Virus genome (UHGV): UHGV-0286708
Strand: one strand, 5' to 3'
Source: a virus
DNA: 12,166 bases
A program made the position numbers and the translations under genes. The notes beneath the pieces are model-generated. The model worked only from the letters and a program-made list of their open reading frames with translations. It searched no databases and was not told the origin of the DNA. Positions 1 to 12,166 of the stretch are shown here, piece after piece (within the stretch, counting starts at the first letter, position 1; the number at the start of each line of letters is the position of its first letter).

Positions 1-371
1 GCGCAGACGATGACGTCACTGCCCGGCTGTATGCGCGAGGTTACCGACTGCGGCCTGAGTTTTTTAAATGGCGGAAAATCGTGTTGAGGCCAACGCCCAT
101 AATGCGGGCGGTTGCCCGGCATCCAACGCCATTCATGGCCATATCAATGATTTTCTGGTGCGTACCGGGTTGAGAAGCGGTGTAACTGAACTGCAGTTGC
201 CATGTTTTACGGCAGTGAGAGCAGAGATAGCGCTGATGTCCGGCAGTGCTTTTGCCGTTACGCACCACCCCGTCAGTAGCTGAACAGGAGGGACAACTGA
301 TAGAAATAGAAGCCACTGGAGAACCTCAAAAACACCATCATACACTAAATCAGTAAGTTGGTATCATCACC
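1..371 (-). mobile_element. IS1 insertion sequence, partial (cut by window start); left inverted repeat ends near 371
   Basis: Reverse complement of 357-371 reads GGTGATGATACCAAC, close to the IS1 terminal inverted repeat GGTGATGCTGCCAAC. The insA ORF lies just inside it, and insB would lie beyond the window start. Confidence 0.9.
41..316 (-). CDS. insA: IS1 InsA (transposition regulator, zinc-finger/HTH protein), 91 aa
   Basis: Translation [43 protein letters not shown]... is the recognisable IS1 InsA sequence with its CxxC...CxxC motif. Confidence 0.9.
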
Positions 372-445
372 TCAAAGCCATTAGGTTCGATTTGAATATA
401 AACAATTTTCATTAAACTGATATTTATCACCAAATTCCGAGCCAA

Positions 446-493
446 AAGATTACATCATATTTAAATGTAATCTTAAATAACTCAGTGTATAAT
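446..493 (+). promoter_or_regulatory. Candidate promoter/operator upstream of the 210-aa ORF: 10-bp inverted repeat followed by a TATAAT -10 hexamer
   Basis: aagattacat (446-455) and atgtaatctt (465-474) are perfect reverse complements with a 9-nt spacer. A perfect TATAAT sits at 488-493, about 70 bp upstream of the GTG start at 565. The -35 is weak. Confidence 0.3.
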
Positions 494-564
494 TCAATTG
501 CACAATAAGAATTAACAGTGTATTTTTAGCCAGGAAATATGATTTCTAAAACGGAGATTTAAAA

Positions 565-1197
565 GTGAAAATATATTACGCATTAAAAAGAATAGCGTAT
601 ATTGCAGGTGCTTTATCTATTGGTTGCGGCTCACTACCAATGATTTTCAGCAAAACACCCGCTCTTCAATACTGGGTGCTCGGGGCTTTTTTAATTTTCA
701 TTGGGTATTGCGTATCAAAGCTTGAGTTCGATAAGTCTAAATACATCAAGTACCTAAATGAAAAGAACGATGGGATTTATATTTATTATGCAAAATTTGG
801 TGGCGAAGAGCACGAAATAAAAATCAACACAAAAAACAAAACAATCGAACTAAAGTCAGGGAAAAATTCCGCCACACTAAACTTTGATAACATCAAATCA
901 TGGAGATATAACGTATCTGGCATTAGCAAGGTTAATGTCATTGGTTCCACTAACAGCGTAATGGGTAATTTCACAGCTTTATCTCAAGCCAGTGCAATCA
1001 ACAACCAAGCAGGGTACAGCGCGTGGGATAATAATGGATTCTTTATTCACACAGATGCATTGGCAAATCCTGTCTGGCATATAAAGATAATACCAAAAGA
1101 TGTCGCAATAAACCTTAAGTCTGACAAGTTTTGGAAAAGTGTCGCTGGCGAATGCGAAGTCTGGATGAACGTAATGAACCGAGCCATTAATAAATAG
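565..1197 (+). CDS. Hypothetical membrane-anchored protein, 210 aa (two N-terminal hydrophobic helices, then a soluble domain); AT-rich cargo
   Basis: Intact ORF with GTG start and GGAG 8 nt upstream. Hydrophobic stretches [19 protein letters not shown] and [15 protein letters not shown]. Codon usage is AT-rich, unlike the neighbouring IS1 and phage genes. I recognise no family. Confidence 0.55.
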
Positions 1198-1441
1198 AAG
1201 TCTTACTGTTGAGGCCAGCGCCCGTGATACGGGCACTGGCACAGCACCCAATACCATTCACGGGCATATCAATGATTTTCTGGTGCGCACCGGGCTGAGA
1301 GGCGGTGTAAGTGAACTGTAGTTGCCATGTTTTACGGCAATGAGAGCAGAGATAGCGCTGATGTCCGGCAGTGCTTTTGCCATTACGCACCACCCCGTCA
1401 GTAGCTGAACAGGAGGGACAGCTGATATAAACAGAAGCCAC
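1187..1441 (-). pseudogene. insA: Truncated insA of a divergent IS1 copy (C-terminus replaced by unrelated sequence)
   Basis: Translation [51 protein letters not shown]... is InsA-like, but it ends in ...GLNSKTSIY where homology to the first copy stops (about 1207). Confidence 0.75.
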
Positions 1442-1497
1442 TGGAGCACCTCAAAAACACCATCATACACTAAATCAGTAAGTTGGCAGCATCACCA
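1207..1497 (-). mobile_element. IS1 remnant (about 290 bp: left inverted repeat plus partial insA), same orientation as the first copy
   Basis: Reverse complement of 1483-1497 is GGTGATGCTGCCAAC, the IS1 terminal inverted repeat. Homology to the first copy runs from about 1207 to 1497 with many substitutions, so it is a different IS1 isoform, truncated. Confidence 0.8.
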
Positions 1498-1541
1498 CGG
1501 CTGCGTTACCTCAATTTTTACACGCCTTAGGTGATTGATTT

Positions 1542-2294
1542 ATGGATTATTTTAGTATTGACTTTTTTATCGGTGAGCTCAAAGTAAATTTTAGTCATAA
1601 GGTTGGTAGGCTTTCGACCGCACTACGGGCAGCTAATTGGCAAATCGATATTAGATATTTGAATGGTAATGACCCCGATATTGGTAAAGAAGTGGATAGT
1701 CTTGAGAAAAACGCATTTAAACGAGTGGAGTTTGAGAGGAAGCAGTATCGGATGCTTTGTGATGATGAAGATCCAATTCAGGAAAGGGTCAATAAGATGA
1801 TCTATTTGTCGGCAATAAACTGGTATTTAGGATTATGTATCGTAGCGTCAGATTGGCGTGATGGTGTGAAGATGTTACTTAAATCTACCGAGCTTCTTGA
1901 TATGTGTCATGGCATTATTGAACATGAAATATGGCAACAGATAGAAACAGAAAAAAAAGGACGTGCTATTAATGGGGGTACAGCAAAAGCTGCTATTTAT
2001 GCTCCTCTAAAAGCTGAAATTATTCGTTTGTTGTATTGCAAGAGACCTATAGATGGTTGGAAAAGCAAGAAGGAGGCTTTGAGGGCTATTGATGAAGATA
2101 TATACAAATTTATTCAAAAACATGGCTATCCCGTTTCTCCTGACGCCAAAAAAGAGGGGGAGGCAGAACTTTATTCACGAATCCCCCGCCTGATTGAAGA
2201 TTGGTCAAGAGATGATGCAATAATTAAGGTTGTTTTTGGCTCAACAGTTAAGCACAAAAATAGCGCCCCTAAGGACGCAGAACAGAATAGATAG
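1542..2294 (+). CDS. Hypothetical protein, 250 aa, AT-rich cargo ORF convergent with the adjacent integrase
   Basis: Intact 250-aa ORF with no obvious transmembrane segment. It sits immediately 3' of the P4-type integrase gene, a classic cargo position in integrative islands. I recognise no family. Confidence 0.55.
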   Translation: MDYFSIDFFIGELKVNFSHKVGRLSTALRAANWQIDIRYLNGNDPDIGKEVDSLEKNAFKRVEFERKQYRMLCDDEDPIQERVNKMIYLSAINWYLGLCIVASDWRDGVKMLLKSTELLDMCHGIIEHEIWQQIETEKKGRAINGGTAKAAIYAPLKAEIIRLLYCKRPIDGWKSKKEALRAIDEDIYKFIQKHGYPVSPDAKKEGEAELYSRIPRLIEDWSRDDAIIKVVFGSTVKHKNSAPKDAEQNR

Positions 2295-2304
2295 ATTGTA
2301 TTTA

Positions 2305-2330
2305 ATGCATGATCCTATTGCATATTTTTT
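2305..2330 (+). terminator. Weak candidate intrinsic terminator between the convergent 250-aa ORF and integrase
   Basis: Short stem ATGCA(2305-2309)/TGCAT(2319-2323) followed by ATTTTTT (2324-2330). The stem is only 5 bp. Confidence 0.25.
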
Positions 2331-2335
2331 GACGG

Positions 2336-3577
2336 TTAACCGACAAGGAGTAGTCCATGACTACCATTGTCTATTATGTTACCGTCATGTGCTGCTTTTA
2401 TAAAATCAGCCCACCATTGCATCATAGGGCGGCGTTGCTCAAGATAATCACTGCGGTTATATGCGCGACGTACTTCATTCTTGTCCACATGAGCCAATGC
2501 AGCCTCAATGACATCAGGCGGAAACCCTTGCTCATTGAGTGCCGTACTAGCGATAGAACGTAAACCGTGTGATACGAGTACGCCTCCTAAACCTGCACGC
2601 TTGAGTGCTGCATTCACTGTTTGGCTGTTCATTGGTTGGGTTGGTTTGATGCGACTGGGAAAGATAAATTCTCGGCCACCACTGAGTGACTTCATCATTT
2701 CCAGAATAGAGAGAGCCTCATCGGATAGTGGAATCGTATGGTCCCGGTTCATCTTCATTCGAGCTGCAGGAATTTTCCATTCGTTAGCATCAAAATCGAT
2801 CTCATCCCATCGAGCTTCAGCAGCTTCGGCAGGGCGGGTAATGGTGAGGAGTTGCCACATGAACAGGCACCTTGTGGACAAGCTGATACTTGCCGTACGC
2901 ATAGTCTGCATTAGCTGTGGAAGTTGATCCGGGCGGATGCTTGGCATGTTTTTCTTTTGCGGTTTCTCGAATGCTTTCCCGATGTTTACGCTGGGAACCG
3001 CATCAATCAAGCCCGTGTTCTGCGCATAAATCATGACTTCGTTAATACGCTGACAAAGACGGCGAACAGTCTCTAATGCACCTCTGGCCTGAACCGGCTG
3101 AACGGCTTTAACCAGAGTATGAGCCTTAATCTCAGTGACACTGATATCACCGATTGTTGGGAAAACATCTCTCTCAAGTGAGCGCCATATATCGTCGGCA
3201 TAGTCCTCTGTTACGCTGGCTTTCTTCACATTCCACCAACGCTCAGCAACTAACAGGAAAGTGTTGGTTTTAGCCTCTTGAGAATTTCTCACCAGTTCTT
3301 TCTGATGTTCCTGAGGATCAATGTCTTTCGCCAATAAAACTTTAGATTCGGCTCTGAGTTTACGTGCATCAGAAAGCGAGACGGCAGGGTAGGCCCCAAA
3401 GCTCTGTTTGGTTCGCTGCTTGGTCAGAGGCCGATAGTAACGGAATTGCCAGAGCTTACTGCCGCTGGACTTGATTAACAGAGTAAGCCCGTCACCATCA
3501 TACAGCTGGTAATCGGCATCTTTAGGTTTGGCGGCTTTGATTTCCGTATCGGTTAACGGCTTGGTTTTTCTTGCCAT
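2336..3577 (-). CDS. intA: P4/CP4-57-type tyrosine integrase (IntA/SlpA-like), about 413 aa
   Basis: Probable start is MARKTKPLTDTEIKAAKPKDADYQLYDGDGL... at 3577, with GGAG upstream; the listed ORF extends 11 codons further 5'. It has the integrase arm-binding N-terminus and C-terminal catalytic motifs (RPAEAAEARWDEIDF, HGLRSIAST, Y in RRAYNRSDY). It lies about 205 bp downstream of a tmRNA 3'-end copy in the same orientation, as in the E. coli ssrA-intA arrangement. Confidence 0.9.
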   Translation of the reverse strand: MARKTKPLTDTEIKAAKPKDADYQLYDGDGLTLLIKSSGSKLWQFRYYRPLTKQRTKQSFGAYPAVSLSDARKLRAESKVLLAKDIDPQEHQKELVRNSQEAKTNTFLLVAERWWNVKKASVTEDYADDIWRSLERDVFPTIGDISVTEIKAHTLVKAVQPVQARGALETVRRLCQRINEVMIYAQNTGLIDAVPSVNIGKAFEKPQKKNMPSIRPDQLPQLMQTMRTASISLSTRCLFMWQLLTITRPAEAAEARWDEIDFDANEWKIPAARMKMNRDHTIPLSDEALSILEMMKSLSGGREFIFPSRIKPTQPMNSQTVNAALKRAGLGGVLVSHGLRSIASTALNEQGFPPDVIEAALAHVDKNEVRRAYNRSDYLEQRRPMMQWWADFIKAAHDGNIIDNGSHGLLLVG

Positions 3578-3597
3578 GGGGAGTCTCCATGCGTTTA

Positions 3598-3633
3598 GGC
3601 CCAACGAAAACAATAGAACTTTTCGTTGGGCCT
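3598..3633. promoter_or_regulatory. Perfect 13-bp inverted repeat (hairpin) about 20 nt upstream of the integrase start
   Basis: GGCCCAACGAAAA (3598-3610) and TTTTCGTTGGGCC (3621-3633) are exact reverse complements with a 10-nt loop. Confidence 0.4.
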
Positions 3634-3704
3634 ATCAATGGGCCTAAAAGGTTCGGATTTAATTAGTTCTCTTCAGACTTCGCGGGACAAATTGAGGGCA
3701 CAAA

Positions 3705-3737
3705 AAAGCCCGCAGGGCTTGTGCCATGCGGGCTTTT
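3705..3737 (-). terminator. Intrinsic (bidirectional-type) terminator hairpin downstream of the tmRNA 3'-end copy
   Basis: AAAAGCCCGCA ... TGCGGGCTTTT forms a GC-rich 11-bp stem flanked by an A-run and a T-run. Position fits the native terminator of ssrA. Confidence 0.6.
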
Positions 3738-3780
3738 AGGACTTCATCGGATGACTCTGGTAATCACCGATGGAGAATTT

Positions 3781-3938: not shown

Positions 3939-4997
3939 TTAAATGCGCTGGTCATTTGATATAGGTAAAATGCTTGTAAAGAGTTTTTCGTCATATAGTG
4001 CGTACTCAGGTATGTAATCACCATTGCTTTTATCTGTTTGGAAGATAGAGGGGTCCTTGTCGATTAAAACATATAACTCAATGAGAATATTTCTTAGTCC
4101 CCAAAGCATTTGCTTTAGTTGTTTTTCATCATTGAATGAGATGCTTATGGCTTCCGTATCTGGTTTTGGATGTTCAGGAATTATTGAGAAAAGATGTTCT
4201 TGGTATTTATAATCAATTCCAAGTAGTCTGCAAAGTTGAATTATGTTTGATTCTATGAGTTGTAGGCTAACTAATTGGTTGTCATGATTTTTGTTGTTGG
4301 ACTTAAGCGATTTGTTTATGTTGTTATAATGATTTGTTGTTTTTCGAATAAAATCTTCTTCGACAGCGGTGCTATAGCCATTATCAATGGAAGATGATTT
4401 GAAAATATTTTTATAAAGAGTGTACGGATGAACTACAGATAGTTCAATACTGTCTATATCACTAGTTTCTTTATTTAATCTTGATAATTTAAATGTTGGT
4501 AGTGTTTGGAATATATCAGCGAAGCTTTTCAGATGTGAGTAATATGAATCAGTGGTGTTTTTTTCAATAACAAGATTGATTTGCTTTTGTGTTTTTTCTA
4601 TTTGGTTCTCTGTTTGTGTGGTTCTATGTATATTGTTGACGATTGCTGCAAGAGGTACCGAAGAAGCTAAAATAAATAATGGCAATTTAGAGATGTCAAG
4701 AAAGTGATTAAAACCGTCTGATGTGAAATTTAAATCGTGGCCTTTCCAAGCCCAGAGGCCATACAAAACAAACATTTTTAACGGTACGATAATAGATGCT
4801 ATGAATAATGGTTGTTTTAATAGATTTTTCTCATTTAGTTTAAGCCAATTGAAGCAATAGAACATAAGTATCAATCCAAGTATATAAGCTACACTAAAGA
4901 AGATAAAAACTCTTGGACGATTAGTGTATATCAATGCTAAGGCAATTAAGATAGTAATGATTGCGTAGGTAATGATTAATGTGAGCTTTTTTTTCAT
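3939..4997 (-). CDS. Hypothetical membrane protein (about 352 aa from MKKKL start; 366 aa if the upstream ATG at 5039 is used), N-terminal 3-4 transmembrane helices plus C-terminal soluble domain; AT-rich cargo at the prophage edge
   Basis: Intact ORF. Hydrophobic helices LTLIITYAIITILIALALIY, VFIFFSVAYILGLILMFYCF, PLFIASIIVPLKMFVLYGLWAW and LPLFILASSVPLAAIV. The start at 4997 lies 4 nt after the int stop codon, on the same strand as cI and int. Strongly AT-rich. I recognise no family. Confidence 0.6.
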   Translation of the reverse strand: MKKKLTLIITYAIITILIALALIYTNRPRVFIFFSVAYILGLILMFYCFNWLKLNEKNLLKQPLFIASIIVPLKMFVLYGLWAWKGHDLNFTSDGFNHFLDISKLPLFILASSVPLAAIVNNIHRTTQTENQIEKTQKQINLVIEKNTTDSYYSHLKSFADIFQTLPTFKLSRLNKETSDIDSIELSVVHPYTLYKNIFKSSSIDNGYSTAVEEDFIRKTTNHYNNINKSLKSNNKNHDNQLVSLQLIESNIIQLCRLLGIDYKYQEHLFSIIPEHPKPDTEAISISFNDEKQLKQMLWGLRNILIELYVLIDKDPSIFQTDKSNGDYIPEYALYDEKLFTSILPISNDQRI

Positions 4998-5001
4998 TCT
5001 A

Positions 5002-6018
5002 TTAAACCAAATTATGTAAAGGATTTTTTGTAACAGCATCTTCTAGATGGTCTGGAGAAAAGTGTGCGTAAACCATCGTCATTTTTATATCGGCATGGCC
5101 CAATATTTCTTTAAGGACAAGAATATTCCCGCCATTCATCATAAAATGACTGGCGAATGTATGACGCAGCACGTGGGTGCATTGGCCCTCTGGTAACTCG
5201 ATGCCTGCTCGCTTTACTGCTCGTTCAAAGGCTTTTCTGCACGGTGTGAATAGTTTCCCTCTGTTCTTGGGGAGTTCATCATACAGATTTTGAGATATCG
5301 GCACGGTACGATTTTTCTTACCTTTTGTCTTGGTATAGGTGATCCGGTATTTTGATAACTGATGGCCCTGCAAGTTTTCTGCTTCACTCCATCGCGCACC
5401 AGTAGCTAGGCATATTTTTGCAATCATTAGTAGGCTGGTGTTTTGAGATTCGGCGCAGGCATTAAGCAGGCGTTTGATTTCGTCCGTGGAAAGAAAAGCC
5501 AATTCACCTTCAGCAATTTTGAAGGTTGGAAGCCCTGCCAGCGGGTTTGGTGCGGACCAGTGCCCTAGTTTTTTCAATGTACCGAACACCGATGACAGGT
5601 TACGCTGCTCAAGATTAACTGTGCGAGGTTTAACGGGTGACATGAACGAGCCGTCTTCATTTTGGACCTCCCCCTTTAATCTGGCTTCCCGATATTTTGT
5701 GAAATCACCTGCTGTCAGCTCAGAGGCGATGGGATCGCCTAGACCATTACAGATAATTCTAAGTTTCGCCATCAGGCGTTTGGGGTCTGCGAGTGTTTGA
5801 CCATATAGGGAATACCACTGCTCAATCACTTCTGATAATCGCCGCCGATCTTCCTTCTCACCAAGCCATGGCTTTTTGTTTACTTCGTCCATGGTGAAGC
5901 TTTCAAATGCAATGGCTTCGCCTTTGGTAGCAAATTGCTTACGCACGCGCTTACCATTGCGTCCATTGGGATAGCACTCACACAACCATTTTCCGTTCGG
6001 CTGTTTTCTGATGGTCAT
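5002..6018 (-). CDS. int: P2/186-family phage integrase (tyrosine recombinase), 338 aa
   Basis: N-terminus ...PNGKWLCECYPNGRNGKRVRKQF... and C-terminal motifs (LATGARWSEA, HVLRHTFASHFMMNGGNILVLKEILGH, MVYAHF) are typical of P2-type Int. Its start is 3 nt after the cI stop. Confidence 0.9.
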   Translation of the reverse strand: MTIRKQPNGKWLCECYPNGRNGKRVRKQFATKGEAIAFESFTMDEVNKKPWLGEKEDRRRLSEVIEQWYSLYGQTLADPKRLMAKLRIICNGLGDPIASELTAGDFTKYREARLKGEVQNEDGSFMSPVKPRTVNLEQRNLSSVFGTLKKLGHWSAPNPLAGLPTFKIAEGELAFLSTDEIKRLLNACAESQNTSLLMIAKICLATGARWSEAENLQGHQLSKYRITYTKTKGKKNRTVPISQNLYDELPKNRGKLFTPCRKAFERAVKRAGIELPEGQCTHVLRHTFASHFMMNGGNILVLKEILGHADIKMTMVYAHFSPDHLEDAVTKNPLHNLV

Positions 6019-6021
6019 AAG

Positions 6022-6660
6022 TTAGAGGTTCTTGATTACTTTGACTGCACGTCCTACGACTTCCACATCATCTACAGAACATTCAAATGAAGTGTCATCT
6101 TGGTTAACTACTATTTTGTTTCCGGGTATGCGCGCAATTTTGACGATGCTTTTAACTCCGTCCATATCGACTAACCAGAAGCCATTACTGACTTGTTTAA
6201 CGGACGTATCCACTACAAAGCTATTATTAGCTGTTTTAACAAATAAAGCGTTGGATGAGTCACCATCGAGCAGGCTGCTATCAAGAAGAATTTCATCACT
6301 TGCCTGCAGTTCGCCGTTCTTCAGTTCAACACGTTTGATGCTAGGAGCAACGATCTTAGAAAGTGGTCTTACAGTGACGGGAGGTTCATTTTTGAGATTT
6401 GTTTCTTCGTTCTCACACGCATACATATCTCCTTGACCAGTAGCCAGCCATAGAAGGGAAACTCCTGTTTCAAGGGCACATTGAATTACCCATTCGGCAG
6501 GAAAGCTATCCCTTAAGTATCTGTTAGCCATAGTGCTTTTGGATACCTCCAGATGTTCGCAGAGCTGCTGTCGTGAACTGAAGTTGTAAGCCTTAATAAG
6601 CCTGTTAATTGCATCGCGCCCACCACTATCATTTCCCGCCTTGATCAAACTCATAATCAA
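6022..6660 (-). CDS. cI: Phage CI-type immunity repressor (186-like), about 210 aa
   Basis: N-terminal HTH region ...LCEHLEVSKSTMANRYLRDSFPAEWVIQCALETGVSLLWLATGQG is typical of CI-type repressors, with a C-terminal oligomerisation-type domain. It is divergent from the apl/cII operon and tightly coupled to int. Confidence 0.8.
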   Translation of the reverse strand: MIMSLIKAGNDSGGRDAINRLIKAYNFSSRQQLCEHLEVSKSTMANRYLRDSFPAEWVIQCALETGVSLLWLATGQGDMYACENEETNLKNEPPVTVRPLSKIVAPSIKRVELKNGELQASDEILLDSSLLDGDSSNALFVKTANNSFVVDTSVKQVSNGFWLVDMDGVKSIVKIARIPGNKIVVNQDDTSFECSVDDVEVVGRAVKVIKNL

Positions 6661-8596: not shown

Positions 8597-9450
8597 GCAC
8601 CATCCTGAAATGGGCGGGAAATAAAACCGCCATTATGTCCGAACTGAAAAAGCATCTTCCTGCTGGCCCGCGACTGGTTGAACCTTTCGCGGGTTCCTGT
8701 GCAGTGATGATGGAGACGGAGTACCCCAGCTATCTTGTTGCGGATATTAATCCTGATTTAATCAACCTCTATAAAAAGGTTGCTGCTGATTGTGAATCAT
8801 TTATATCTCGCGCCAGAGTTTTATTTGAGATCGCAAACAGGGAGGTAGCTTATTACAACATAAGGCAGGAGTTTAATTACTCAACTGAAATTACTGATTT
8901 CATGAAAGCGGTATATTTCCTGTATCTCAATCGTCACGGTTACCGTGGTTTATGTCGCTATAACAAGAGCGGGCATTTCAACATTCCCTACGGTAATTAT
9001 AAAAATCCGTATTTCCCTGAAAAAGAAATTCGCGCATTTGCAGAAAAAGCCCAGCGAGCAACGTTTATCTGCGCCAGCTTTGATGAAACGCTGGCGATGT
9101 TGAAGGCGGGGGATGTGGTGTATTGCGATCCGCCGTATGACGGTACGTTTTCCGGCTATCACACTGATGGTTTCACTGAAGATGACCAGTATCACCTGGC
9201 ATCCGTTCTTGAACATCGGTCATCAGAAGGACATCCGGTCATTGTTTCTAACAGTGACACATCCCTGATCCGTTCGCTGTATCGCAATTTTACTCACCAC
9301 TATATCAAGGTAAAACGCAGCATCGGTGTGGCAGCTGGCGAGGGTAAATCAGCAACAGAAATCATTGCTGTTTCCGGGCCGCGCTGCTGGTTGGGATTTG
9401 ATTATTCGCGTGGCGTGGATAGTTCTGCCGTGTACGGAGTGCGTGCATGA
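8593..9450 (+). CDS. dam: Dam-type N6-adenine DNA methyltransferase, about 285 aa, phage-encoded orphan methylase
   Basis: From [11 protein letters not shown] it parallels E. coli Dam: [39 protein letters not shown] and the catalytic DPPY ([10 protein letters not shown]). ATGA overlap with the TraR-like stop. Confidence 0.9.
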
Positions 9451-11861
9451 GCCATGCTGATATGAACAACTGCAGCGGCTTTAACGAGGCCGCCGCAGCA
9501 TTCTCATGGAACAGCCCGAAAAAGGCTATTAACCCTTATCTGGACCCGGCGGAAGTTGCGCCGGTTTCTGCGCTTTCAAACCTGATCACTCTGTACGCTG
9601 CCGATAACGAGCAGGAACAACTGCGCCGCGAGGCACTGAGTGATCAGGTCTGGGAGCGTTATTTCTTTAATGAATCCCTTGATCCTGTCCAACGCGAAAT
9701 GGAGCAGGATAAGCTCATTAGCCGGGCAAAGCTGGCGCATGAGCAGCAGCGTTTTAATCCGGACATGGTCATACTGGCGGACGTTAAAGCCCAGCCCTCC
9801 CATATCAGCAAGCCGCTGATGCAACGTATTGAATACTTCAGCAGCCTGGGCAGGCCAAAGGCTTATTCCCGCTATTTGCGTGAAACGATTAAGCCATGTC
9901 TGGAACGACTGGAGCATGTACGCGACAGTCAGCTATCCACTTCTTTTCGCTTTATGGCAAGCCATGAAGGGCTGGACGGCCTGCTGATCCTGCCTGAAAT
10001 GAGTCAGGATCAGGTGAAACGCCTGTCTACTCTTGTCGCTGCGCATATGAGCATGTGTCTTGATGCCGCTTGTGGTGATTTGTACGCCACCGATGATGTT
10101 AAGCCAGAAGAAATCCGCAAGACATGGGAAAAGGTGGCAGCAGAAACCCTGCGACTGGATGTCATACCGCCTGCGTTTGAGCAACTCCGCCGGAAAAGAA
10201 ACCGCCGTAAACCCGTACCCTATGAACTCATTCCGGGTTCGCTGGCGCGTATGTTGTGCGCCGACTGGTGGTATCGGAAATTATGGAAGATGCGTTGCGA
10301 ATGGCGGGAAGAGCAGTTGCGTGCTGTTTGCCTGGTCAGCAAAAAAGCATCTCCCTATGTCAGCTATGAAGCCGTGATGCATAAACGTGAGCAGCGCCGT
10401 AAGTCGCTGGAGTTTTTCCGTTCTCATGAACTAGTGAACGAAGACGGCGACACGCTGGATATGGAGGACGTGGTAAACGCCAGTAGTAGCAACCCGGCGC
10501 ATCGCCGCAATGAGATGATGGCATGTGTTAAAGGTCTGGAGCTTATCGCGGAAATGCGCGGTGACTGCGCCGTTTTCTACACCATCACCTGTCCGTCACG
10601 TTTCCATTCCACGCTAAATAACGGCAGGCCCAACCCAACCTGGACAAATGCGACGGTAAGACAAAGCAGTGATTATCTGGTCGGCATGTTTGCTGCATTT
10701 CGTAAGGCGATGTACAAAGCCGGATTGCGCTGGTATGGCGTGCGGGTGGCTGAGCCGCATCATGACGGTACAGTTCACTGGCACCTGTTGTGTTTTATGC
10801 GCAAAAAAGATCGCCGCGCCATTACTGCTTTGTTGCGTAAGTTTGCCATTCGTGAAGACCGCGAGGAGCTGGGTAATAACACAGGACCACGCTTTAAGTC
10901 TGAGCTGATAAACCCGCGCAAAGGTACGCCAACAAGCTACATCGCGAAATACATCAGTAAGAACATTGACGGGCGTGGTCTGGCTGGCGAGATCAGCAAG
11001 GAAACGGGTAAATCCCTGCGTGATAACGCTGAATACGTTAATGCCTGGGCGTCTCTTCATCGTGTTCAGCAATTCCGCTTCTTTGGCATTCCGGGGCGTC
11101 AGGCTTACCGTGAACTGCGATTGCTGGCTGGTCAGGCGGCAAGGCAACAGGGGGACAAAAAAGCAGGTGCGGCGGTACTGGATAACCCACGCCTTGATGC
11201 CATCCTGGCTGCTGCTGATGCTGGTTGTTTTGCCACCTACATCATGAAGCAGGGCGGCGTACTGGTTCCCCGCAAATATCACCTCATCAGAACCGCTTAT
11301 GAAATCAACGAAGAGCCGACCGCCTATGGCGATCACGGCATTCGTATTTATGGCATCTGGTCACCCATTGCAGAGGGCAAGATCTGCACTCATGCAGTGA
11401 AGTGGAAAATGGTTCGTAAGGCCGTTGACGTTCAGGAGGCGGCAGCCGACCAGGGCGCTTGCGCCCCTTGGACTCGTGGCAATAACTGTCCCCTTGCCGA
11501 AAATTTGAACCAACAGGAGAAAGATAAATCAGCTGATGGGGACACCAGAACGGATATTACCCGCATGGATGACAAGGCGTTGCACGATTACCTGCACAGT
11601 ATGAGCAAAAAAGAGTGCCGGGAACTGGCAGCAAGGTTACGCCTGGTGAAACCGAAACGGCGTAAAGACTACAAACAGCGAATTACAGACCATCAGCGAC
11701 TGCAGCTCGTGTATGAGCTGAAGTCCAGAGGATTTGATGGCAGCGAGAAAGAGGTCGATTTACTCCTTCGCGGAGGCAGTATTCCGTCAGGAGCAGGCCT
11801 GCGTATCTTCTATCGGAACCAGCGTTTGCAGGAAGATGATAAGTGGCGGAACCTGTATTAA
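9447..11861 (+). CDS. A: Replication initiation protein gpA (P2/186 gene A, rolling-circle HUH endonuclease), 804 aa
   Basis: Large ORF in the gene-A position, coupled to dam by an ATGA overlap. It has an HUH-like motif ([10 protein letters not shown]) and paired tyrosines ([10 protein letters not shown]), as expected for the gpA nickase. Confidence 0.85.
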
Positions 11862-11954
11862 TTACGCTGGTTAACAATTCGTGCTCTTAATAATACCAGG
11901 CATATCAGGCTGATAAGCGTAAAAAAAACGTTTTACATCAGTAAGATTATTATA

Positions 11955-11974
11955 TACTGTAAATATAAACAGTG
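11955..11974. promoter_or_regulatory. LexA-box-like palindrome (SOS operator) upstream of the next ORF
   Basis: TACTGTAAATATAAACAGTG has the form CTGT-N8-ACAG with an AT-rich spacer, matching the LexA consensus TACTGT(AT)4ACAGTA at about 17 of 20 positions. A TTTACA hexamer (11932-11937) lies 17 nt upstream. Confidence 0.5.
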
Positions 11975-12015
11975 GTTATACATACAGTATTGCGTGTGGT
12001 GTCATAGGAGGAAAG

Positions 12016-12166
12016 ATGCAGGACTATTTTTTGGAGTCTTTGAAGCTCCAGCGCATTGATTTTTTTCTTAAGCTTGTAGCGGCTAGTGAGTGTAGTGATG
12101 AAGAGAAGGGGCTGGCTCTGCAGTGGGTTTCTGAATTGACTGATGAACTCATGGCAAAAATCAGAA
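12016..12166 (+). CDS. 5' part of an ORF running off the window (at least 50 aa); hypothetical, possibly SOS-regulated (position analogous to 186 tum and the P2-family cargo region after gene A)
   Basis: ATG at 12016 with GGAGG 4-9 nt upstream; open to the window end (MQDYFLESLKLQRIDFFLKLVAASECSDEEKGLALQWVSELTDELMAKIR...). Absent from the ORF track only because no stop is reached. Confidence 0.45.
   Translation, partial: MQDYFLESLKLQRIDFFLKLVAASECSDEEKGLALQWVSELTDELMAKIR

Follow-up and report, generated by a model that had tools for sequence, protein, structure and literature searches.

A predicted SOS operon with a tumA-type antirepressor gene behind a double LexA operator in a Fels-2-type prophage

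Introduction

[quoted passage not shown] 2011, PMC3121763). That article ascribes the regulation of Fels-2 to an antirepressor mechanism like that of 186. It also states, citing Bunny et al. 2002 and a personal communication, that tum is split by a stop codon in Fels-2 and PSP3 and that antirepressor activity resides in the upstream gene. Direct genetic work comes from the Phollow study (PMC12055606, Supplementary Data 1), in which ECHS_RS04495 is identified as tum of prophage DuoHS in Escherichia coli HS. Mitomycin C no longer causes lysis or virion formation by DuoHS when tum is deleted in frame or when LexA is made non-cleavable by a lexA(Ind-) allele (PMC12055606). In Salmonella carrying Fels-2, increasing doses of the mutagen MX raise expression of the STM2726-STM2728 operon, by as much as 14.8-fold, and the operon is tabulated with the LexA regulon (PMC2225428). 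Colicin genes provide a further point of reference. In these operons, two LexA dimers bound to double boxes prevent untimely expression of a lethal product (PMC2994835).

Here we analyze a stretch of viral DNA of 12,166 nt, referred to throughout as the window, and focus on its right end. Positions 11862-12166 very probably contain the promoter, the operator and the 5' four-fifths of tumA, the first gene of an SOS operon in a Fels-2-type prophage (Felsduovirus, 186/P2 family). The tum gene and its SOS module are already known and have been tested genetically in a relative with identical sequence. This report places the window's copy among the described systems and adds a second LexA box to the predicted operator.

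Results

The open reading frame follows gene A in a Fels-2-type prophage

The replication gene A (9447-11861, + strand; Pfam Phage_GPA, 9.9e-127) ends 154 nt before the ATG of the gene that we call tumA. To its left, the cI immunity repressor gene (6022-6654, - strand) encodes the presumed antirepressor target, with Phage_CI_repr (3.9e-33) and Phage_CI_C (5.1e-40) domains. Its N-terminal domain is 99% and its C-terminal domain 88% identical to the corresponding parts of Fels-2 CI. By sequence, the repressor is of the Fels-2 type, that is, a 186-type CI composed of a helix-turn-helix domain and a C-terminal domain. A Pfam search of this CI found no S24 peptidase domain. RecA-stimulated self-cleavage would therefore be unavailable to it, and SOS induction of the prophage would need an antirepressor route. 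The genes cII, DUF5347, TraR and Dam lie between cI and gene A. The early region, which runs from int by way of cI, apl, cII, fil and dam to A, is intact, with open frames throughout. Thus, tumA is the right-hand neighbor of gene A, in a prophage of the P2 family that has a 186-type CI.

The left third of the window holds unrelated genes. Positions 1-3780 fall outside the prophage match to strain KE58 and contain genes for a P4-type integrase (2336-3613, - strand; Arm-DNA-bind_3, Phage_int_M and Phage_integrase domains), a DUF4755 protein (565-1197) and a 250-aa ORF that has no Pfam match (1542-2294). This region looks like a second integrated element adjoining the prophage. Rfam and tRNA scans of the window returned no matches, and no tRNA gene was found in it. 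Within the stretch that is common to the window and KE58, a 366-aa ORF with no Pfam match (3939-5039, - strand) shares 38 nt with the end of the prophage integrase gene (5002-6018). In SopEPhi and Klebsiella phage phi4.1, too, an unknown, unrelated-looking gene stands next to int, and the position beside int may be a cargo site.

The tumA reading frame is identical to a characterized tum gene

The preliminary description had noted a strong ribosome-binding site (RBS) and the ATG at 12016, with the ORF cut by the window end. The frame beginning with this ATG remains open for 50 codons, up to the end of the window (12016-12166, + strand). Its 150 coding nucleotides and 50 residues match ECHS_RS04495 (WP_001154431.1), which encodes a protein of 62 aa in E. 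coli HS, with 100% identity. The ORF is 62 aa long in relatives, which places the stop 12 codons past the window end. The visible part thus corresponds to the first 50 of 62 codons of a tumA-type antirepressor gene. All 50 visible residues are shared with STM2728 of Fels-2, which is 97% identical over the full 62 aa, and 11862-12166 as a whole has 96.4% nucleotide identity to Fels-2.

The gene is widespread. Of 5426 complete E. coli genomes, 1101 contain the segment (1099 of them at 80% coverage or more). Phage records with a match number 58 and come from Klebsiella, Salmonella, Escherichia and Yersinia. Across four phage genera, the TumA protein is 82-100% identical. The pattern of substitution indicates a reading frame under purifying selection: each of five diverged relatives differs by 11-16 synonymous and 4-6 non-synonymous codon changes, mostly at third positions. 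An antisense ORF of 42 aa lies within tumA (12024-12152, - strand), and this frame is free of stop codons in most relatives. It is probably a by-product, because both the codon positions of the substitutions and the published genetics favor the + strand.

The TumA family comprises 87 clusters at 50% identity among 1.8 billion representative sequences. None of the 87 clusters contains a fused Tum-like protein, and all consist of short, miscalled or chimeric ORFs. A Pfam search placed the ORF in no family, and a sequence search of the PDB with the family profile returned no relative with a solved structure. An AlphaFold model of TumA is a two-helix hairpin (pLDDT 85). Database labels for the gene do not reflect its genetically tested role. 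RefSeq names the product "hypothetical protein", PHROGs 698, 8554 and 1993 are annotated as being of "unknown function", and one UniRef entry and some Klebsiella phage records use the name "levan regulatory protein". Gene callers also often start the ORF further upstream, across the operator, which yields versions of 84-109 aa.

TumA corresponds to the N-terminal part of 186 Tum

A BLASTP comparison of the 62-aa TumA with 186 Tum produced no alignment. At the profile level, a family profile built from 39 diverse members aligned with 186 Tum over residues 5-46 of both (hhalign probability 94.7%, E 6e-8), at a sequence identity of about 16-17%. PHROG matches link the same proteins. The window protein matches phrog_698 (6e-38), phrog_8554 (1e-8) and phrog_1993 (0.002), and 186 Tum matches the same three families in the opposite order of strength (phrog_1993, 1e-22; phrog_8554, 1e-11; phrog_698, 3e-5). 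PSP3 TumA matches phrog_1993 at 3e-32 and compares weakly with the family profile (hhalign E 0.0033, probability 9.8%). These profile-level relationships, found where BLASTP was negative, indicate homology between TumA and that N-terminal part of 186 Tum which is not DinI-like.

The remainder of 186 Tum would have its counterpart beyond the window end. In all ten relatives examined, a DinI-like gene of 77 aa begins about 3-14 nt after tumA, and a gap of about 10 nt would be expected in the window's operon. Where compared, its product matches Pfam PF06183 (6.6e-23) and is 41% identical to residues 71-145 of 186 Tum. Together, tumA and the DinI-like gene, here called tumB, would correspond to the fused 186 Tum. 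The relatives from which we deduce the part of the operon beyond the window, namely the tumA stop and tumB, are 95-100% identical in sequence. TumB probably tempers RecA activity. The preliminary description had held that an ORF ending after a few more codons would speak against a tum-like gene. The ORF of the relatives comes close to doing just that, ending 12 codons past the window, but its shortness refutes nothing, because Tum in this phage group is split into a short antirepressor gene and a DinI-like gene.

Two hairpins are present in this part of the KE58 prophage. A 6-bp hairpin followed by TTTT (L001 6332-6349) spans the tumA stop, finishes shortly ahead of the tumB start codon and might influence how tumB is expressed. 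Downstream of tumB lies a stronger hairpin with a T-run (L001 6641-6667); it resembles a terminator and fits a two-gene SOS operon.

Two overlapping LexA boxes precede tumA

The preliminary description had drawn attention to a CTGT-N8-ACAG palindrome resembling the LexA operator at 11955-11974, and its coordinates are correct. The core at 11957-11972 is the sole site of this kind in the 12,166-nt window. Such a bare core is expected 0.16 times per window by chance and occurred at least once in 30 of 200 shuffled windows (15%). The full 20-mer, here termed box 1 (TACTGTAAATATAAACAGTG, 11955-11974), differs from the consensus TACTGTATATATATACAGTA at three positions, and a match of this quality was seen in none of the 200 shuffles. 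Scoring with a LexA weight matrix, as that description had proposed, gave 22.8 bits; this makes box 1 the top site in the window, within the range of recA and sulA, and the maximum among shuffles (n = 200) was 18.3. The matrix, assembled from 25 E. coli LexA operators, is approximate.

A second box was absent from the preliminary description. Box 2 (CAGTGGTTATACATACAGTA, 11970-11989) is the second-best matrix site in the window at 18.2 bits, a score that is somewhat favored by the presence of the colicin E1 boxes among the training sites. It shares 5 nt with box 1, and the two form a double operator of 35 nt. This geometry is kept in all eight aligned phages from four genera, and the CTGT and ACAG cores of box 1 are invariant in seven of them, the variant being CCAG in Kp phi12.1. 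Box 1 is placed 42 nt upstream of the AGGAGG RBS and ATG (12016). By its geometry, with two 20-bp boxes, a 5-bp overlap and a position between promoter and gene, 11955-11989 appears to be a double SOS operator of the colicin type, and LexA would be expected to bind at both boxes.

Conserved elements of a probable promoter surround the operator

The predicted tum promoter, the counterpart of 186 p95, has a -35 hexamer TTTACA at 11932-11937 (+ strand) that is invariant in eight phages of four genera. Its -10 hexamer, TACTGT at 11955-11960 (+ strand), is the left end of LexA box 1 and is identical to the annotated -10 of 186 p95. A near-consensus LexA operator therefore appears to lie across the -10 of the tum promoter. 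The spacer between the hexamers is 17 nt, and its sequence varies among the aligned phages. An A-tract just upstream of the -35 (11921-11928, + strand) is matched by a block of at least five A residues in 8/8 aligned phages, and we infer that it may serve as an UP element. The RBS, AGGAGG at 12006-12011 (+ strand), can be read directly and is invariant in eight phages. In 186, the p95 annotation gives TTCACA, 18 nt and TACTGT, with the LexA site beginning at the first base of the -10; the window has the same layout, with a spacer of 17 nt rather than 18. The overlap between palindrome and promoter put forward in the preliminary description is borne out in part by the p95-like layout and the conserved -35, but it drew no call from a generic scan: a search of 11700-12166 for sigma-70 promoters and terminators was negative. 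The missing promoter call can be attributed to the weak -10.

The same elements stand out in an alignment of eight phages from Felsduovirus, Elveevirus, Gegevirus and Dagavirus. Little or no variation is seen in the A-tract, the -35, the two boxes and the RBS, whereas the spacer and leader diverge, even in length, and so does the sequence upstream of the A-tract. Such a pattern amounts to a phylogenetic footprint of a regulated promoter.

Alternative explanations

We considered whether the locus could be something other than an SOS-controlled antirepressor module. One possibility is that the palindrome is a chance match in AT-rich DNA that lies outside LexA control, leaving the ORF constitutive or silent. 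The bare core does turn up in 15% of shuffled windows, and the generic scan reported no promoter. Yet the full 20-mer arose in 0/200 shuffles, the two highest LexA-matrix scores in 12 kb are adjacent and in exact colicin geometry, and the boxes are conserved while their flanks diverge. Moreover, lexA(Ind-) blocks induction in HS, where the boxes are identical (PMC12055606), and the Fels-2 operon is induced by DNA damage (PMC2225428). We assign this explanation a negligible probability. The preliminary description had also allowed that the ORF might be hotspot cargo, a defense or moron gene that came to lie behind a LexA box by chance. P2-like phages do vary in what they carry between gene A and the portal gene (AIPR, Hypoth_Ymh and other unknowns), and databases list the tumA ORF only as a "hypothetical protein". 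However, every relative examined has both the ORF and the DinI-like gene, with the variable genes downstream of them, and 1099 of 5426 E. coli genomes contain at least 80% of the segment, a frequency at odds with cargo. The published deletion phenotype is that of tum (PMC12055606). Conservation and this phenotype refute a cargo identity for the ORF, which we accordingly rate as very unlikely. Of the two options named in that description, it is the LexA-repressed module resembling 186 tum, to the right of gene A, that agrees with the identity to DuoHS tum and the profile homology to the 186 Tum N-terminus.

The real variable hotspot is the stretch between the DinI-like gene and the portal gene, outside the window. 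In relatives, the variable genes start after the DinI-like gene and extend to the portal gene, and the cargo differs even between near-identical prophages: a hypothetical protein and an AIPR family protein in KE58 (L001 6701-9396), a Hypoth_Ymh domain protein in 813R9 (L002 6058-7209), and other unknowns in Fels-2 (L004 3145-5303) and in E. coli HS (L008 25166-27520).

A further alternative accepts the module but denies that it works as an induction switch in this prophage. The prophage could be defective, or TumA could be inactive on a Fels-2-type CI, and the operon would then only supply a DinI-like SOS modulator to the host. Several observations are compatible with this. The direct genetics were done in E. 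coli HS, where CI has 41% identity to that of the window; the late genes lie outside the window, whose left third is taken up by another integrase and unrelated genes; and coverage of the window stays below 80% in every complete E. coli genome. Against it, both CI and tumA are almost the same as in Fels-2, a prophage described as antirepressor-regulated in Lemire et al. 2011 (PMC3121763), the early region from int to A is intact and open, and tumA is under purifying selection as judged from its substitutions. We consider a module that does not act as a switch improbable, though less so than either cargo or a chance palindrome, and a working tumA switch remains the preferred reading.

One TumA accompanies divergent CI repressors

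The TumA of HS shows 100% identity to that of the window or KE58, whereas the CI proteins of these prophages (window 6022-6654, - strand, 210 aa; HS L008 18701-19270, - strand, 189 aa) are only 41% identical overall, with 63% identity in the N-terminal domain and 25% in the C-terminal domain. The prophage in which the published deletion was made therefore has a repressor that differs substantially from that of the window. Among eight phages, TumA is 82-100% identical and the CI C-terminal domains fall to as little as 23%. The N-terminal motif RD(S/T)FPA(E/D)WVI.C.LETG of CI is kept in all TumA-carrying phages examined. These comparisons suggest that TumA may target the conserved DNA-binding domain of CI and could act across immunity types. 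A correlation between TumA identity and CI domain identity in the eight phages (r = 0.76 for the N-terminal and 0.34 for the C-terminal domain) was driven by the 186 outlier and was discarded as evidence.

Antirepressors of the Gifsy prophages have been shown to act in trans. By analogy with colicin genes, prophages with the double operator may be more tightly repressed and induced later than the single-box phages 186 and PSP3. A combined reading would be that TumA hits a conserved CI surface and acts in trans on heteroimmune P2-family prophages residing in the same cell, while the double operator sets a higher and later damage threshold than in 186. We put this forward tentatively, as a possibility that we regard as somewhat doubtful.

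Discussion

The features described above can be assembled into a model for induction. In the lysogen, LexA would occupy two overlapping SOS boxes that cover the -10 and start region, and the operon would be silent. DNA damage would activate RecA, LexA would cleave itself and tumA-tumB would be transcribed. The 62-aa, two-helix TumA would then bind the 186-type CI and block it from its operators, allowing the early lytic promoter to fire, after which the prophage would excise and replicate. The steps of LexA cleavage and tumA-tumB transcription are supported by the HS genetics and by the Salmonella expression data. The action of TumA on the window's CI is proposed by analogy, CI binding being known from 186 Tum.

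Such a module would explain how a prophage whose repressor cannot cleave itself responds to DNA damage. This is relevant to predicting prophage induction by antibiotics such as quinolones and trimethoprim in about one-fifth of sequenced E. coli, as well as in many Salmonella and Klebsiella. For practical purposes, the gain lies in annotation, in that public databases call a genetically characterized tum gene "hypothetical". Small testable leads on the induction threshold and on cross-talk between prophages come from the double operator and from the occurrence of one TumA with divergent repressors.

The closest described system is DuoHS tum of E. coli HS. Both of its LexA boxes are identical to those of the window, the gene occupies the same place after gene A and before a DinI-like gene, and the sequences flanking the operator differ by just a few bases. 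Fels-2 of Salmonella Typhimurium LT2 (STM2728/STM2726.1) has the same double operator and the same CI immunity type, and it differs from the window by point differences only; box 2, for example, reads TATGTACAGTA in Fels-2 and TACATACAGTA in the window. Unless the window itself comes from Salmonella, the two also differ in host genus.

The relationship to 186, whose Tum and p95 promoter are treated in Brumby 1996 and Shearwin 1998 (as cited in PMC3121763), is more distant. There, tum also lies to the right of gene A, a DinI-like part follows and the target is a 186-type CI. However, 186 Tum is one fused protein of 146 aa with internal starts, whereas the window's group has two genes. The 186 promoter also has a single LexA box where the window has two, and 186 carries orf97 downstream of tum, in the place of the variable cargo carried by the window's relatives. 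PSP3 resembles the window group in having a split tumA/tumB after gene A. Its tumA is annotated as "similar to 5' end 186 tum; UV induction of prophage", and its tumB is DinI-like. Unlike the window, PSP3 has a single LexA box, and its TumA belongs to another sequence cluster (phrog_1993, compared with phrog_698 for the window).

A parallel to the operator itself is found outside phages. A 41-nt operator query matched hundreds of small ColE1-type plasmids with 87% identity. In one of these plasmids, the matching operator, TACTGTATATAAAACCAGTGGTTATATGTACAGTA, stands just upstream of a cloacin-type bacteriocin gene; the identity is 87% over 39 nt, and likewise 87% for the 35-nt unit of the window. 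Colicin and cloacin operons have the same two 20-bp boxes with a 5-bp overlap. The two arrangements differ in what they control, a toxin in the plasmids and a prophage antirepressor in the window, and in how the promoter is built: both hexamers of the cloacin promoter lie upstream of the boxes, whereas in the window box 1 itself supplies the -10.
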